This document shows, piece after piece, positions 2,351-23,919 of a DNA stretch of 64,000 nt. Under the pieces are notes generated by a model, which saw only the letters and a program-made list of their open reading frames with translations, made no database searches and was not told the origin of the DNA. How positions within the stretch are numbered: position 1 is the stretch's first letter; each line of letters opens with the position of its first letter. Source of the DNA: a virus; the IMG/VR virus record IMGVR_UViG_3300042008_000003, positions 23,841-87,840 of that record, one strand, 5' to 3'. A program made the position numbers and the translations under genes.

Positions 2351-3858
2351 TGTCAGAAGAACAGGAAATTATTGGGCCTAGTAGTGCTAAACAATCCCTA
2401 ATGTTGAATCAGCAAGCTGATACGGCTATTCTAGGGGGGGCTATGGGCTCAGGAAAATCATTCATTTCATTGCTTTATCCTTTGAAATTTGCTGACGATC
2501 CTCACCTTCGCGGTATTATCTTCCGTAAGACCACTGGTGAAATCACCGCTCAAGGTGGTCTTTGGGAGAATGCTTGTGAAATCTATTCTAAAGTCTATGG
2601 TAATGCTGAAGAACTAAGGAAACAAGGCAAGAAAGGTGGTATCAAGATTCATATCAAAGATCTTAAAATTACCTTTCCTTCTGGCGGTTCAATTAAGTTC
2701 TCTTACCTAGAAAATTCCCGTGATTTGCTCCGACACCAAGGGGCAGCTTACACTTTTGTGCTATTTGACGAAGCCACACACTTTACTCAAGAAATGATTG
2801 AGTACCTTATTAAGCGTATGCGTTCGGCCCGCGCAAAACACAAGAAGCAAATGGTTCTCACTTGTAACCCAGATCCAGACTGGTTTGGTCTTGAGTGGAT
2901 TAAACCTTATCTCACAGAAGATGGTACACCTAATACTGATAATGACGGAAAGATGCGTTATTATGCAGTAGATAACGGTGACTACGTTTGGTCAGATAGT
3001 CGTGAAGAATTAGAAGCCATTTATGGTGAAGGAACAGATTCTGGTATTCGCAGTTTCACCTTTGTGAGCGCGAATTGCATGGACAATATTCCACTTATGA
3101 CTGCCGACCCAACATATCTATCTAATTTGAAAGCTCAGAGTACCGTAGATGTCCAACGCTACCTCTATGGTAACTGGTTTGTAAGGCCAACTAACTCAAC
3201 CATGATACGTCGTGAGTGGTTTGTCGAAAAAGATCAAGAACCTGCATGGACAGAGATAGTTAAAACAGTTAGGGCATATGACTTTGCTTTCGTTTTACGT
3301 TCAGATAAGAATAGTTCTCCTGATTATACTGTATCGGTTAAGATGAGTAAGTTGAAAGATGGTAATTACTTTATTCATGACATCCGAAGAACTCGTATTC
3401 TACCCGGAGATTGGATGAAGTTTATTTTAGACGCAGCTCTAGCTGACGGACCTAAAGTAGAAATTGTATTGCCTCTTGACCCTCAAACTCGTTATAGCAA
3501 CACATTCATATCTAAAGACCTGTCATCTAAAGGTTTTCATGTACGTCAGTTCAAAACTACAGGACACAAAGAAGATCGCTTCAAACCGTTTACATCTATT
3601 GTTATGAATGGTGGAATGCAGATTCTAAAGGATTGTGGTGCTGACTATGAAAATGGAGTTTATGACGATCTTAACTTTTTCTATAAAGAGTTAGAGTCTT
3701 ATGAGGGTGGTAAAAGATCCTCTGGTACTCGCCACGACGATCTTTGTGATGCTTGTAGCGATTCATTTGCTGCGGTAGCCTCTAGTAAGACTATACCAAA
3801 CTTCCTTGCTGGTTTAAAAGGCGCAAACCTTTCATATAATAATCCCTTCAATCAATAG
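2350..3858 (+). CDS. terL: terminase large subunit
   Basis: Walker A GGAMGSGKS, Walker B FDEATHF, TCNP motif, nuclease YDFA...HDDLCDA. Confidence 0.95.
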   Translation: MSEEQEIIGPSSAKQSLMLNQQADTAILGGAMGSGKSFISLLYPLKFADDPHLRGIIFRKTTGEITAQGGLWENACEIYSKVYGNAEELRKQGKKGGIKIHIKDLKITFPSGGSIKFSYLENSRDLLRHQGAAYTFVLFDEATHFTQEMIEYLIKRMRSARAKHKKQMVLTCNPDPDWFGLEWIKPYLTEDGTPNTDNDGKMRYYAVDNGDYVWSDSREELEAIYGEGTDSGIRSFTFVSANCMDNIPLMTADPTYLSNLKAQSTVDVQRYLYGNWFVRPTNSTMIRREWFVEKDQEPAWTEIVKTVRAYDFAFVLRSDKNSSPDYTVSVKMSKLKDGNYFIHDIRRTRILPGDWMKFILDAALADGPKVEIVLPLDPQTRYSNTFISKDLSSKGFHVRQFKTTGHKEDRFKPFTSIVMNGGMQILKDCGADYENGVYDDLNFFYKELESYEGGKRSSGTRHDDLCDACSDSFAAVASSKTIPNFLAGLKGANLSYNNPFNQ

Positions 3859-19407: not shown

Positions 19408-20184
19408 GTGACAGCAGAAGCTATTCAAGATGTATTAGTATCTTCTTTCCAAAGTCAGATGCAGAATGTCCATACAATCTTACCATGTATTGTTGTTGGT
19501 GTAAGAGATGGCTTAAATGGGCAGATGGTTGATATTCAACCCACCATTAATCAGAAGTATCAGGATGGCACTGTTAAAGAACGACCACCAATTCTAGGTG
19601 TTCCTGTAGCATTTCAAGTATCTAAGAAAGCTGGGTTTACTTTCCCAATTGAAGTTGGGGATACAGGCACAGCCCTGTTCTCAATGAGAAACATGGATGC
19701 TTGGAAGTCTGGTAATGGTAGACCATCTACCCCAGCAAACTTCGCTAAGATGGATAAGGGAGACGCTATTTTCCTCCCTGGAATCCAACCTCCAGGGATT
19801 GCTGTGAACAATCCAGCAAAACATATCTTAGCACATGATACTAAGGACACTGTTTTATTCGCTAATCTTGGTGGTGTTGAGAGCGAAGTGAGGTTGAAAG
19901 TTGATGGTAGTGTTGAAATAAATACTTCCAGTCAACCAGTGGTTATTAACTGCTCGCAGGCCACAATTAATGCCTCTGAAAGTATTAACCTAAACACTCC
20001 CTCAATGGTTGTGGATGCTCAAAATACCCAATGGATAGGGAATATCAATCTTCAAGGAAATCTTGTACAGATTGGTAATTATACACTTACTGGTGTTGCC
20101 ACCTTCAACGGCATCCCGTTCGACACACACAAACACCTCGGGGTCCAAACCGGGAGTGGAACTTCGGGTAATCCTACAGCTTAA
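19408..20184 (+). CDS. baseplate central spike (gpV/gp138-like)
   Basis: VDIQP...FPIEVGDTG; C-terminal HKH.GV metal-binding tip. Confidence 0.85.
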   Translation: MTAEAIQDVLVSSFQSQMQNVHTILPCIVVGVRDGLNGQMVDIQPTINQKYQDGTVKERPPILGVPVAFQVSKKAGFTFPIEVGDTGTALFSMRNMDAWKSGNGRPSTPANFAKMDKGDAIFLPGIQPPGIAVNNPAKHILAHDTKDTVLFANLGGVESEVRLKVDGSVEINTSSQPVVINCSQATINASESINLNTPSMVVDAQNTQWIGNINLQGNLVQIGNYTLTGVATFNGIPFDTHKHLGVQTGSGTSGNPTA

Positions 20185-20195
20185 GGTGATGAATA

Positions 20196-20570
20196 ATGGA
20201 CTTCAAATTAGACCCTCTTGAGCATGACATTCTCTGGAAAAACGGACCTTTGACCAAAGATTGTACCACTCAACCCTACACTGAAACAGTTGGTCAACGA
20301 TTAAAGATTAGACTTCTAACATTCATGGGTGAATGGTTTCTTGATACAACATATGGCGTCCCGTACTGGCAGAGATTGTTAGGTATCAAGCAAACATCTA
20401 AGGCTGCTATTGACCTTATATTTCAACAACAAATCTTAGCAGAGTCCGGAGTAAAAGAGATTGTAAGCTTTGATTCCACTTTTAAAAACAGACAATATTC
20501 ACTTAGTTTTAGGGTGAAGGTTGTTACAGGTCAGATCACAGCACCTATTATTGTTCAGCCGGTTAATTAA
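20196..20570 (+). CDS. baseplate wedge/sheath initiator (gp25-like)
   Basis: RLLTFMGEWFLDTTYGVPY. Confidence 0.8.
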   Translation: MDFKLDPLEHDILWKNGPLTKDCTTQPYTETVGQRLKIRLLTFMGEWFLDTTYGVPYWQRLLGIKQTSKAAIDLIFQQQILAESGVKEIVSFDSTFKNRQYSLSFRVKVVTGQITAPIIVQPVN

Positions 20571-20613
20571 TACCCTCTGTACAGACAAGTAACCAAATTC
20601 TTAAGGAAATAAA

Positions 20614-20718
20614 ATGGCGGGTATTTCTGACCAAGGCTTTACAATTAAAAGAATGACAGAGATACTTTCAGACTTACGTGCTGAAGCTACCTCTTTATTT
20701 CAAGATTGTGAGGAGTAG
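20614..20718 (+). pseudogene. stranded 5' fragment of baseplate J gene
   Basis: MAGISDQGFTIKRMTEILSDLRAEATSLFQD is 22/31 identical to the N-terminus of 21649..23091; AAGGA RBS. Confidence 0.85.
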
Positions 20719-20722
20719 CAAA

Positions 20723-21661
20723 ATGCTCTTGTCAGAATACTACTCCACGAGTAAACACAGCCTTAATGGTAATTCCTATGAAATATTATCTTATGGTAAG
20801 AATCAAAGATCTGTTTTCTTATTAAAATGTATCGTTTGTGGCGAAGAAGTAAGCATAAGACCTGCATCTGTGTTGTCTGGAAGAAAACCTTGTTCGTGTA
20901 ATAATCTAGCATCATCCCCAGAAAAGAAAATTAAACGTTTACTTCCTATCTTAAAACAGAAAAATTTAAAACTCTTGTCTGTTGAGATTCAAAGAGCCAA
21001 AGACCCTATTCAGATAGAATGTCTTGTCTGTAATAATACTTGGTCAGGTACTTATAACGGATTAGTTTTAAAGGGAACTGGTTGTAAATTCTGCGCGAAT
21101 AATGTAAGACCAACAGAAGAGCAATTTCAAGAGCAGATCGAAAAATTAGGTAGAAGTTTAGATTTTAGTTTTATTAGCATGGAATACTCCACAGACGTAA
21201 AACTTAGAAAAGTTCCAATTAAGCTAAATTGTTTGAAATGTAAAAAATCTTGGATAACTACATCTGCAAGTATTAGAAAAGGGAGTACTTGTCCGCAATG
21301 TGCGTACTCTGGATTTAATCCATTAAAACCCGCCAAGTTATATATCCTTAAAGTCATTTCCTCAGATAATATCTTACAAGGCTATAAGTACGGGATAACT
21401 TGTGATATAGAAAGAAGACTGTATGAGCATCATAGAGATTGTAAAAGTTTAGGTTTAAAATTTGAAGTTTCCTATATCTGGCAGTATGAAAACGGTGACT
21501 TGGCTCAATTTCACGAACGTTTAATTAAGTCTAAATTCGGAAGTTACTTTAACCTACAAGAACTTCCAAGTGGATTTACAGAATCTGTCCCAATATACAG
21601 CTTATCAGAATTGGTTGACTTTCAGTCCCAACAATACAGGAAGGAATTATGGCTGGATTAA
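20723..21661 (+). CDS. zinc-ribbon-repeat plus GIY-YIG-type homing endonuclease
   Basis: Three CxxC...C-rich repeats; C-terminal LYILK...YKYGIT.DIERRL..H...GFTE; start moved to ATG 20723 (GAGGAG RBS). Confidence 0.8.
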   Translation: MLLSEYYSTSKHSLNGNSYEILSYGKNQRSVFLLKCIVCGEEVSIRPASVLSGRKPCSCNNLASSPEKKIKRLLPILKQKNLKLLSVEIQRAKDPIQIECLVCNNTWSGTYNGLVLKGTGCKFCANNVRPTEEQFQEQIEKLGRSLDFSFISMEYSTDVKLRKVPIKLNCLKCKKSWITTSASIRKGSTCPQCAYSGFNPLKPAKLYILKVISSDNILQGYKYGITCDIERRLYEHHRDCKSLGLKFEVSYIWQYENGDLAQFHERLIKSKFGSYFNLQELPSGFTESVPIYSLSELVDFQSQQYRKELWLD

Positions 21662-23091
21662 CTAATTCAGGTTTTGAAATAAAAAGGATGACTCAAATCT
21701 TGTCAGATTTGAGGGCAGAAGCTGTAACTTTATTTACGGATTTGCTGGAACCCGGCGATCAGGTCGATACATCTAGTAGTTCGGCCCTAGGTCGCCTTGT
21801 GGCTCTTGTTAGCCCAAGTCTAGCAGATTTATGGGAAGTGGCACAAGCTGATTACCAGGCATTTGATCCCAACTCTGCTACAGGTATTGCTCTGGATAAT
21901 CTTGTAGCTCTTGGTGGTATCACCAGACAAGAACAGACATACTCCACGGCACAAGTAGTTGTCTCAGGGGATAACGGTACTTTGGTATCCTCGGGCCTTA
22001 CTATAGGCAGCTCAATTGACAGCAGTCAGTGGACAATTCTATCACCTGTAGCACTTTCCCCTTCTCAAGCTGTCGGTATTACAGTTACTCCTGTAACAGT
22101 TTCTAACACAAGTGTTTATAGCATAACTTATACATCTATCACCACATCAAACACTATCAACTACACTAGTGATGCTTCGGCTACAGCTGCTGAGATTGTG
22201 GCTGGTTTGAATGCTACAATTATTGCAAGCCACCCAAGCCTTGTCAGCAGCATTGAAGGAACAAGCCTTAAGATTAGTCGTGTTGATGAATTCTCAGCAG
22301 TAACCTTCACGGTAACATCTAACCTTGGTATTACAAAAGTACAAAAACTTGGTGAGGTTCGTAGTAGTGTAGTTGGAGAAGTTAACGCTGAAGCCGGTAC
22401 ACTCACTGTTATCCTTACACCTCAACTTGGTTGGGATAGTGTAACAAACCCACAAGCTGCAAGTCCAGGGCGTAATCTTGAGACTGATGAAGAACTACGT
22501 TTAAGGTTCAGAGAGACTAAGTTTGAGAGAGCATCTAATATCCTAGAAGCTCTATACTCAGCCCTGATCAACCTTGAGGGTGTTGAGGAAGTGCGTATCT
22601 ATGAGAATGATACTGATGTTATAGATGCTTTTGGTGTCCCTGCACACAGCTTCATGCCAATTATTCTTGGTGGTGTAAGTATAGATATAGCTAATACCAT
22701 ATGGGAAAATAAGCCAATGGGTATCAGAAGCTATGGTGATACCATAGTTGTAATCTTTGATACTCAAGGTTTCTCTCATAATATTGGTTTTGAAAGACCA
22801 GATCCACAGCCTGTTTATATTACTGTTAATTTAACAACAGATAGTGATTTCCCAGGAACTGGTGTTGATGATATCAAATCTGCATTAATAGCATACTTTA
22901 ATTCTAATCTTGGTATTGGTGATGATGTTATTTGGAGCAGGTTATTCACACCTATTAATACAGTGAAAGGTCATGAGGTAGATAGTTTGTTTATTGGAAC
23001 TTCTCCTAGCCCAACAGGTGTTGATAGTATCCCTATATCTTTTGATATGATCGCAAGTTTATCCTCAGATAACATAATTGTGAATACATAA
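21649..23091 (+). CDS. baseplate J-like wedge protein
   Basis: ATGIALDNL, GRNLETDEELRLR, LEGVEEVRIYEN. Confidence 0.9.
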   Translation: MAGLTNSGFEIKRMTQILSDLRAEAVTLFTDLLEPGDQVDTSSSSALGRLVALVSPSLADLWEVAQADYQAFDPNSATGIALDNLVALGGITRQEQTYSTAQVVVSGDNGTLVSSGLTIGSSIDSSQWTILSPVALSPSQAVGITVTPVTVSNTSVYSITYTSITTSNTINYTSDASATAAEIVAGLNATIIASHPSLVSSIEGTSLKISRVDEFSAVTFTVTSNLGITKVQKLGEVRSSVVGEVNAEAGTLTVILTPQLGWDSVTNPQAASPGRNLETDEELRLRFRETKFERASNILEALYSALINLEGVEEVRIYENDTDVIDAFGVPAHSFMPIILGGVSIDIANTIWENKPMGIRSYGDTIVVIFDTQGFSHNIGFERPDPQPVYITVNLTTDSDFPGTGVDDIKSALIAYFNSNLGIGDDVIWSRLFTPINTVKGHEVDSLFIGTSPSPTGVDSIPISFDMIASLSSDNIIVNT

Positions 23092-23103: not shown

Positions 23104-23919
23104 ATGTTAAACCCTTTTATCGAGCAAGACTATCTCAGTGAAGCCCGTGAGCGGGTGACAGAGCAATTCAAGTACGACCCTACAAGTGATACCGGGGCAA
23201 AAGTTTTTGATAAATATCTACAACTTCTTATTAATGCTCAAGTAGAGATACAGAAAGTATTTAAAGACTTGATGCAACTAAGAAGTCTTGATACTGCCAC
23301 CGGCGCTCAACTTGATGTTATTGGTAGGATTGTTGGTCAAGAACGTGTTCTTTTGAATGCTGACTTCTACGACTTCTTTGGTTTCCAAGGGGCAACTAAA
23401 GCTGCAAGTTTTGGTGAATTAGGTAATCCAACTGTTGGTGGTATGTTCTATGATTATGGTAAACCACTTGGTGGTAACATAGAACTTGACGACACTACTT
23501 ACAGACTTTTCATAAAAGCTAAGATATTTAAAAACACCACCTCATCTACCCCAGAAGAATTTTTAGCTGTAATTAACCTTGTTTTCGGGACCGATACGAC
23601 AGTATTAACTGAGGAGGGTGATGCATCTATCACCGTTTTGTTGTCTAGGGCTCTGACTGATTTTGAGCGGGCATTAATTTTCTATATTAGTAATGATCCC
23701 GGATATCCTTCAAGGTTAATCCCTAAAACAGTTGGAGTCAGGATAAATTTTGGTGAATACAATGGAGATAGCTTCTTTGCATTTGAAGGTGTCCCTGGTG
23801 CTAAAGGCTTTGGGGAATTTACAGGAACATATGGGTATGGTCTTGGTTGGGGCTTAAGCTATGGCGACAGCGATTTTATCATTACTGGAGATGGCGGAAC
23901 CTTCGCCACCCTATTTTAA
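23104..23919 (+). CDS. baseplate wedge protein (DUF2612-like)
   Basis: LDTATGAQLDVIGRIVG, LDDTTYRLFIKAKI. Confidence 0.85.
   Translation: MLNPFIEQDYLSEARERVTEQFKYDPTSDTGAKVFDKYLQLLINAQVEIQKVFKDLMQLRSLDTATGAQLDVIGRIVGQERVLLNADFYDFFGFQGATKAASFGELGNPTVGGMFYDYGKPLGGNIELDDTTYRLFIKAKIFKNTTSSTPEEFLAVINLVFGTDTTVLTEEGDASITVLLSRALTDFERALIFYISNDPGYPSRLIPKTVGVRINFGEYNGDSFFAFEGVPGAKGFGEFTGTYGYGLGWGLSYGDSDFIITGDGGTFATLF

Follow-up and report, generated by a model that had tools for sequence, protein, structure and literature searches.

Two versions of the beginning of one structural gene stand 1035 base pairs (bp) apart in a 64,000-nucleotide (nt) stretch of viral DNA, positions 23,841 to 87,840 of the IMG/VR record IMGVR_UViG_3300042008_000003, an 87.8-kb virus record rated 99% complete. 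This stretch (the window) raises the question of how a nuclease gene has become lodged at the start of an essential virion gene, and which of the two gene starts serves that gene now. Downstream of a gp25-like baseplate wedge gene (W), the window carries a short open reading frame (ORF) that reproduces the first 31 codons of the baseplate gene J (the stub), a gene for a zinc-finger nuclease and, finally, an intact J whose own beginning departs from that of the stub. Our estimate, with a probability of roughly two in three, is that a homing endonuclease cut J near base 90-94, and that one-sided repair of the break left behind the stub, a short leader, the nuclease gene and a J start derived from the donor.

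The stub ORF (20614-20718) starts with its own ATG, continues through 31 J-like codons and ends in Cys-Glu-Glu and a TAG that closes it before the nuclease ATG. The GAGGAG ribosome-binding site lies 7 nt 5′ of that ATG, and the nuclease ORF overlaps J in another frame. The two J starts align without gaps, with 22 of 31 residues and 61 of 93 bases identical and a longest shared run of 8 nt, and 12 of the 20 identical residues other than Met are encoded by different codons. Deletion of 20707-21741 (1035 bp) places the stub in frame with the remainder of J. These elements had been described in an earlier reading made without database searches (the sequence-only reading), and all of them, from the Cys-Glu-Glu-stop with its Shine-Dalgarno sequence to the overlapping intact J, were present at the positions given there; the gap-free identity, the codon differences and the in-frame fusion also held. 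An intein was considered and rejected, since a stop codon and changes of frame separate stub, nuclease and J, and the insertion is not in frame.

A scan of viral contigs with J identified 24 related loci, to which the window J aligns over its full length, and in the nuclease-free loci among them W is followed directly by J. The 31 residues of the stub were found as the N-terminus of J in 9 out of 9 closest relatives (L002-L007 and L014-L016, with J proteins 91-92% identical to that of the window). At the DNA level, the stub and the J start of L005 are the same at every base, and the other eight close relatives differ from it at 1-4 bases (96-100% identity over the first 90 nt). On the contrary, the working J of the window was only 64-66% identical to these relatives over bases 1-90, with identity rising to 84-86% over bases 100-300; the last dense differences are located at J bases 96, 97, 99 and 108. 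Because the starts of nine relatives equal the stub while the working start is so divergent, the alignments identify the upstream copy as the former J start of the phage itself and point to an origin elsewhere for the downstream copy. By the same alignments, the resemblance between stub and J is attributed to homology and not to chance.

The empty allele was also recovered from an independent metagenome, in which a contig of depth 84 (run X3) passes directly from 20703 to 21739 and so lacks 1035 bases; this joint is ambiguous by 4 bases, and a similar one was observed in run X2. In the window, the end of the stub can likewise be placed anywhere within 20703-20707 (4 ambiguous bases). Short contigs 98-99% identical to the nuclease gene were present at depth 2-4 in runs X2, X3 and X4, the protein cluster of the nuclease at 98% identity has six members, and the genome of the window carries a single copy of the gene. 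The sequence-only reading had anticipated an empty allele made of the upstream copy joined to codon 32, and this allele exists in nuclease-free relatives, with the X3 contig lacking the same 1035 bp. Its proposal that nuclease and foreign J start arrived together in a phage whose native start is the upstream copy agrees with the pattern of identity among relatives. The data support the downstream copy as the putative working start: it is the only J start in eight lineages that carry the nuclease without a stub, and the downstream copies of two other loci, L035 and L047, share 30 of 30 residues in spite of 11 different codons, all differences being synonymous.

Analysis of the 312-amino-acid (aa) product revealed CapR-type and further zinc fingers in the N-terminal part and a predicted C-terminal GIY-YIG domain of the T5orf172/MUG113-like kind (approximately residues 200-312; nt ~21320-21658). 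In Pfam, the CapR zinc finger PF21817 was matched at residues 24-59 (36.7 bits, cut-off 24.2) and zinc ribbons were matched by DUF4379 (26.6 bits, cut-off 24.5) and also by a HypA-like family. The match to MUG113 (PF13455) at residues 221-275 (E 9.5e-4) reached 20.1 bits, below the cut-off of 22.3, and T5orf172 (PF10544) was not among the Pfam matches of the nuclease. The protein was assigned to PHROG 681 'endonuclease' with an E value of 8e-45. An AlphaFold model based on an alignment of 26 homologues showed a mean predicted local distance difference test score (pLDDT) of 84.6. Residues 200-312 of this model were compared with 48,161 chains, and the best match was At-HIGLE (Z 6.7, root-mean-square deviation (rmsd) 2.7 over 86 residues), followed by two Slx1 entries (Z 6.5 each) and EF2693 (Z 5.2), with I-TevI at row 17 (Z 4.0). 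We take all of these entries to be GIY-YIG proteins, and the modelled domain would adopt the GIY-YIG alpha/beta fold, at modest Z values. A profile search of the nuclease against the sequences of solved structures returned only chance cysteine-rich matches, and a Foldseek search with the whole beads-on-a-string model gave no match at E <=0.001.

Residues K222, G224, R232 and E265 of the nuclease are invariant in the 26 homologues, as are eleven Cys residues, and Y221, I225 and E287 are nearly invariant; by analogy, the Tyr/Gly motif, the Arg and the acidic residue presumably have catalytic roles. Since the nuclease occurs between W and J with no stub in eight other lineages, the 312-aa gene is identified as a predicted free-standing homing endonuclease of the CapR zinc-finger plus T5orf172/GIY-YIG kind. 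The CapR zinc finger is located N-terminal to the nuclease domain, a domain plan shared with the CapR + T5orf172 homing endonucleases presented in the available part of Barth et al. 2023 (PMC10448857), where the CapR-like finger, with its CxxC...CxC motif, is often repeated.

Scans with the nuclease alignment detected 14 loci in viral contigs and 8 in metagenomes, partly on the same contigs; a scan of viral contigs with the single nuclease protein found none, and an exact scan of viral contigs for the left junction of the window was also negative. A distant DNA search of a phage collection returned three weak matches of 4-6% coverage to Pseudomonas phages, uninformative for this locus. Loci L013 and L025 were left out for lack of a J start on the contig; L004, L019, L030, L032 and L041-L045 as the same as or near-identical to loci that were kept; and L040 and L048 as distant paralogues in other contexts. 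L038, with an incomplete sequence, stands outside the tree.

The nuclease family resides at the W-J boundary in a group of tailed phages of roughly 85-90 kb, with W as the left neighbour of its usual insertion point. At this boundary the nuclease is present in some and absent from other close relatives at the same locus, as known for homing genes; eight lineages carry it stub-free and five with a stub (Table 1). All five stubs stop within J codons 30/31, in a common register, after TTTCAAG, TTTCAAGA, TTTCAAGATT or TTTGGT. The leaders between stub and nuclease ATG are 8-15 nt long and mutually unrelated, and the ends of the stub ORFs range from 5 nt upstream to 14 nt downstream of the nuclease ATG. 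Wherever a locus extends far enough, the final nuclease codons contain the J ribosome site, and the overlap of nuclease C-terminus and J start seen in the window is also present in L017/L033.

The foreign character of the J start was found again in other loci. The stub of L018/L036 is 97% identical to the J start of nuclease-free L020, with three differences, all synonymous, and the working J of L018/L036 was 61, 90 and 93% identical to that of L020 over bases 1-90, 100-300 and 300-600, respectively. Comparison of stub-free L031 with the J of nuclease-free L021 gave values of 54, 76 and 89% for the same intervals. As a locus with a stub and a stub-free locus both show the foreign start, the J start appears to travel with the nuclease gene, stub or no stub. 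Co-conversion of the flank, another property of homing genes, is thus seen in the window, L018 and L031, each against a nuclease-free relative, and the right edge of the foreign tract falls at about base 100, 125 and 205, respectively. In the nuclease tree, the window groups with stub-free L027-L030 (support 99/98), and the positions of the other stub loci are unresolved. Loci L035 and L047 have nuclease proteins 79% identical and nuclease 5′ ends about 91% identical in DNA; since their leaders are unrelated and their stubs differ in spite of these similar nucleases, they appear to represent separate events. Altogether, the comparisons indicate at least three separate stub-forming events, and probably five.

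Table 1. Features of the W-nuclease-J region of the window, and loci with related arrangements.
Feature	Window position or loci	Strand	Remark
Baseplate wedge gene W (gp25-like, 124 aa)	20196..20570	+	PHROG 120 baseplate wedge subunit, E 1e-27
34-nt insert in W-J spacer	20567..20600	+	Flanked by 4-nt TTAA repeat
Native J ribosome-binding spacer, retained 5′ of stub	20601..20613	+	Identical in all nuclease-free relatives of the clade
Stub: first 94 nt of the recipient's own J (31 codons + 1 nt)	20614..20707	+	Match to L005 94/94 nt
15-nt leader accompanying the nuclease gene	20708..20722	+	GAGGAG 20710-20715, TAG 20716-20718; read from sequence
Homing endonuclease gene, 312 aa (predicted)	20723..21661	+	Stop 21659-21661; 13-nt overlap past J ATG 21649
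Putative ribosome-binding site of working J, inside last codons of nuclease gene	21638..21646	+	Read from sequence
Foreign (donor) J start, working J bases 1 to ~90-108	21649..21756	+	Identity drop vs relatives
Working baseplate J, 480 aa	21649..23091	+	Pfam Baseplate_J 48.4 bits; PHROG 6, E 2.7e-63
W-nuclease-J without stub	L027, L028, L029, L031, L033 (=L017), L037, L038 (cut), L046 (cut)		W stop to nuclease ATG 2-24 nt
Stub present	Window, L034 (=L044), L035, L036 (=L018), L047		
Related nuclease genes at neighbouring boundaries	V-W in L011/L039; opposite strand in L009; J-I in L027 and L037		

The codon differences between the two J starts had been read as a recoding that would destroy the cut site and hinder excision by recombination. 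As a special feature of this locus, the recoding in the sequence-only reading did not stand. Special recoding in the window was ruled out by the number of codon differences, 12 observed against 12.1 expected under a null of two independent draws from the codon usage of the family. In the body of J, the fraction of identical residues with different codons between the window and relatives of 71-77% protein identity was 0.53-0.57. The other pairs of starts lay at or a little above the null expectation; the L047 pair showed 23 codon differences against 17.7 expected (P 0.02), and the pooled pairs 78 of 112 against 68.8 expected (P 0.04), a marginal result driven by L047 that is not relied on here. 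In L047, the stub (1904-1990) and the working start (2930-3016) are identical at 29 of 29 residues, and their 28 base differences are all synonymous. Such differences suggest that the copies diverged as working genes in separate lineages, before the event, and were brought together recently, since a dead stub would have gained amino-acid changes; the match of the window stub to a relative at every one of its bases argues for the same pre-event divergence. The apparent recoding is explained by ordinary saturated divergence of donor and recipient alleles, that is, by a split between nuclease-linked and nuclease-free J starts that appears to predate the insertion, with no editing after it. Runs of at most 8 identical bases would leave little for recombination between the copies. 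The region of the site also seems to differ in nuclease-linked alleles, in which codon 30 is not CAA in 7 of 11 cases, against 3 of 18 nuclease-free alleles (Fisher P 0.017, relatedness ignored). As an observation in its own right, L047, where 23 of 28 codons differ, is the cleanest example in the set of two synonymous versions of one peptide placed next to each other.

From the anatomy of the locus, the empty allele, the foreign start, the recurrence at one codon and the fold class of the enzyme, we infer the following site of cleavage and route of repair. Since the five stubs end in codons 30/31, the enzyme would cut within these codons, near J base 90-94, in J alleles that lack the nuclease. 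A co-infecting phage with the nuclease gene directly 5′ of J would provide the template for repair: the right-hand broken end would invade the donor J, and synthesis would copy the donor J start and the nuclease gene. The first ~90 bases of J lie between the nuclease gene and the cut and would therefore always be co-copied. The right side would be resolved by homology in J, in the window within ~15 bases of the cut, and the variable right edge of the foreign tract fits homologous resolution and not a fixed cassette end. If copying extended into a W that matched that of the recipient, repair would be completed by homology and no stub would be left. If the donor W were too different, the intact left end would be joined without homology just 5′ of the nuclease start, and the first 90-94 bases of the recipient J would survive. 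Homology on the left would be lacking because W is highly variable: the identity of its protein to that of the window reaches 90% in L006 but is only 58-61% in most phages with a J 91-92% identical, which makes a non-homologous left joining plausible.

The product of such a repair would contain, in this order, the first 94 bases of the phage's own J as a dead stub, the 15-base leader, the nuclease gene, the donor J start and the body of its own J, and J would now be translated from the donor start via the ribosome site in the last codons of the nuclease gene. Rather than belonging to the design of the element, the stub is more readily understood as a leftover of repair that lacked homology on the left. 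Its ORF is served by the old J ribosome site and stops 4 bases short of the nuclease ATG, so that ribosomes leaving it may go on to translate the nuclease. One-sided repair joined at microhomology after a homing cut is described for T4 in the available part of a review (PMC2988022).

With regard to signals for expression, a scan of the window for promoters and terminators was no richer than shuffled sequence (7 vs 4.4 expected, and 1 vs 1.1, respectively). A weak hairpin is predicted at 20685-20716 (z -2.2; 6 of 200 shuffles match it), pairing the GAGGAG site of the nuclease with stub codons 26-27. If this hairpin were real, translation of the stub would open the ribosome site of the nuclease gene.

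Several points weigh against repair of a cut in J as the origin of this locus. The junction of the stub is presumed to mark the cut site, and known free-standing phage endonucleases are able to cut far from their genes. The donor was not found, and the nearest nuclease with a known context, that of L027, is 55% identical. All five leaders are short, and random non-homologous joining should often take more of the donor W end; as a conjecture of our own, short leaders could be explained if longer copies regained W homology and were resolved stub-free. The support for the nuclease from fold and domains is modest (Z 6.5-6.7; MUG113 below the Pfam cut-off). Finally, the window stub is 96-100% identical to relatives, with lower values in the flanks (W 3′ half ~92-94% vs L006; J body ~85%), and this greater closeness could mean that the stub came with a cassette from a previous host.

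This last pattern is expected if stub, leader, nuclease gene and foreign J start together form a mobile cassette, in which the stub acts as the left and the J body as the right homology arm, and the stub is carried in. The element would then sit at its own cut site, in the manner of an intron without splicing, and the stub-free loci would be later deletions. The position of all five junctions at one codon and the short length of all leaders are in line with such a cassette, and the ends of the stub ORFs, from -5 to +14 nt around the nuclease ATG, would permit coupled translation. However, L035 and L047 have nuclease 5′ ends that are ~91% identical but leaders with no relation to each other, and the window nuclease is sister to stub-free loci (support 99/98). 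The W-nuclease spacer of stub-free L027 starts like the W-J spacer of nuclease-free L023, which fits insertion into the spacer and not deletion of a stub. No two loci were found with a common cassette and different stubs, and the exact scan of viral contigs for the left junction was likewise negative. We consider this explanation unlikely, although worth keeping in mind. The sequence-only reading had also envisaged a cassette landing inside J: the joint arrival of the nuclease with a foreign start is retained from it, whereas the usual home of the nuclease is the W-J spacer, and the right edge of the tract varies between loci.

Homing with one-sided repair also has to be weighed against three further explanations. 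Two in-register copies of 31 codons, 1035 bp apart, could result if the J start had been duplicated locally in tandem, the nuclease had then entered between the copies and one of them had diverged. The upstream copy is identical at up to 94 of 94 bases to the working alleles of relatives and the downstream copy is synonymously saturated, so there would have been no time for such change after a local duplication; moreover, the 28 all-synonymous differences of L047 would be impossible had one copy been dead during divergence. This origin is very improbable. Equally improbable is the removal of the 1035 bases from the RNA, by a self-splicing intron or otherwise, with the stub as the true first exon of J. 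Excision of 20707-21741 does restore the J frame, and short unannotated first exons beside homing endonuclease genes are reported for the ICP1 terminase in the available part of PMC10448857. Against it, no family matched 19500-23000 in Rfam at E <=1 beyond two chance-level matches (mir-50 and snoR113), and the downstream copy possesses its own ribosome site and start, is conserved as a protein (the L035/L047 comparison) and serves alone in the stub-free lineages. Repair without splicing, as first proposed from the DNA letters, agrees with these results. As for an assembly chimera of nuclease-free and nuclease-bearing strains of one sample, relatives of both kinds do co-occur in metagenomes; the joint shares no more than 4 bases, not enough to mislead an assembler, a second assembly (run X1, possibly the source sample) reproduces 20300-22038 without a difference, and four other unrelated contigs from other samples have the same layout. 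The chance of such an artefact is close to negligible.

The boundary regions of the locus showed further peculiarities. The spacer between the end of W and the stub ORF measures 43 nt and includes a 34-nt insert, which is absent from run X2 and X3 contigs (these join 20566 to 20601) and from relatives; this insert (20567-20600) is unique within the window and the 40 loci compared, and could represent a further scar of repair or what remains of another W end. In L012, the W-J spacer 3′ of the W stop (2490-2533) resembles a degenerate second W 3′ end of the L006 type, possibly a remnant on the other flank of the boundary. One and the same W-J spacer follows at least three W types, and the W mosaic may be a product of repeated homing at this boundary. 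In other phages of the group, related zinc-finger/GIY-YIG nuclease genes occupy adjacent gene boundaries within this baseplate module; that of L009 lies on the opposite strand, between V and W. Locus L045 (3017-3030) is identical to L042 over 2931 bases upstream, yet carries an extra T in the T-run at J bases 94-97 that shifts the J frame. This extra base falls exactly where the stubs end, and it could be a homopolymer sequencing error or a scar of imprecise repair at the cut site. An unusually conserved native 5′ block of J was considered in nuclease-free relatives and rejected, as its identity (94-96%) is only slightly above the J-body average (~84-95%).

The window nuclease behaves like the free-standing Seg and Mob genes of T4, which show co-conversion of the neighbouring gene, according to the available part of the review PMC2988022. 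As with the GIY-YIG endonucleases of the T4 Seg type considered there, its gene is placed between conserved essential genes and is variably present in close relatives, the adjacent stretch of the neighbour is co-replaced, and expression signals of host genes are used while new ones are supplied downstream. The two differ in that the DNA-binding part of the window nuclease consists of CapR-type zinc fingers and its nuclease domain is of the T5orf172/MUG113 kind, and in that the window keeps the replaced gene start of the recipient as a stub; the term 'duplication' is absent from PMC2988022. The CapR + T5orf172 genes of ICP1 and other phages are also found beside essential structural genes and at boundaries of genetic exchange, and Barth, Dunham and Seed (PMC10448857) deal with free-standing, intron-borne and intein-borne genes and with collaborative homing. 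A duplicated gene end left by insertion, as in the window, is not described in the portion of that article at hand.

The closest counterpart of the stub comes from fungal mitochondria, a comparison that the sequence-only reading had already made and that proved apt. Endonuclease ORFs with a duplicated gene end are described there for atp6 of Allomyces and for atp6, atp9, cox2 and nad3 of Glomus (PMC3630166, accessible part): the endonuclease ORF introduces a foreign gene end that replaces the native one in function, and the latter persists nearby as a relic. Identity to close relatives was 91-98% for the relic and 64-81% for the inserted end, with amino acids largely conserved; the corresponding values in the window are 96-100% and 64-66%. 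The window therefore presents the mirror image of that gene-end duplication, at the 5′ end of a phage gene instead of the 3′ end of an organelle gene. Its nuclease is a separate ORF with its own start and not an in-phase fusion of the Allomyces/Glomus atp6 type. The nuclease families also differ, as the fungal enzymes in the accessible part of PMC3630166 are LAGLIDADG proteins in most Glomus cases, and GIY-YIG in atp9.

Other ways of placing an endonuclease gene at an essential gene can be set beside the window. No phage gene-end duplication left by a homing endonuclease was found in the literature covered, a coverage that is incomplete and excludes supplements, so that this is not proof of absence. 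In T4, mobA, together with the bypass element of gene 60, is reportedly an endonuclease gene in or at an essential gene that operates by translational bypass and not by RNA splicing. A group I intron-encoded endonuclease differs from the window in that the Rfam scan of 19500-23000 recognized no ribozyme core in the latter, and J begins anew 3′ of the nuclease gene. The mobE split genes (Aeh1 nrdA) are similar in having an endonuclease gene in or at the edge of an essential gene that works without RNA splicing; the insertion known in that case, from the available part of PMC2988022, yields two polypeptides, whereas in the window J stays whole and its start is replaced. The one-sided repair of T4 is also similar, in that homology on one side suffices, the other side is joined at microhomology and entry is possible without full homology. 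That repair was observed in a laboratory assay with an intron, as far as the same part of PMC2988022 goes, while the type found in the window appears fixed in at least five wild phage lineages and its products would keep the function of the gene through a replacement gene start.

A bolder proposal, which we advance only tentatively and which may well be wrong, is that the nuclease and the first 30 codons of J constitute a self-sufficient 'gene-start replacement' module, a selected and intron-free way of living in a gene. If true, the element could enter phages without upstream homology, since homology would be needed only downstream of the cut. The broken essential gene would be repaired by the start supplied with the nuclease, and the old start would serve as a translation ramp and perhaps as a left homology arm. 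The synonymous split between nuclease-linked and nuclease-free J starts would then be maintained by drive.

For natural phages, homing with one-sided repair means that a carried-in gene start would let an element enter an essential virion gene without an intron or an intein, an outcome until now described for fungal mitochondria and for the 3′ ends of genes. The five stubs that end in one codon provide a prediction, at the level of the base, of the cut site of an uncharacterised enzyme family. With respect to annotation, a short 'hypothetical' ORF 5′ of a phage nuclease gene may be what remains of the gene next to it, and the true N-terminus of a structural protein may be foreign. Altogether, the locus is a further case in favour of nuclease genes determining where mosaic exchange begins and ends in the structural modules of phages.

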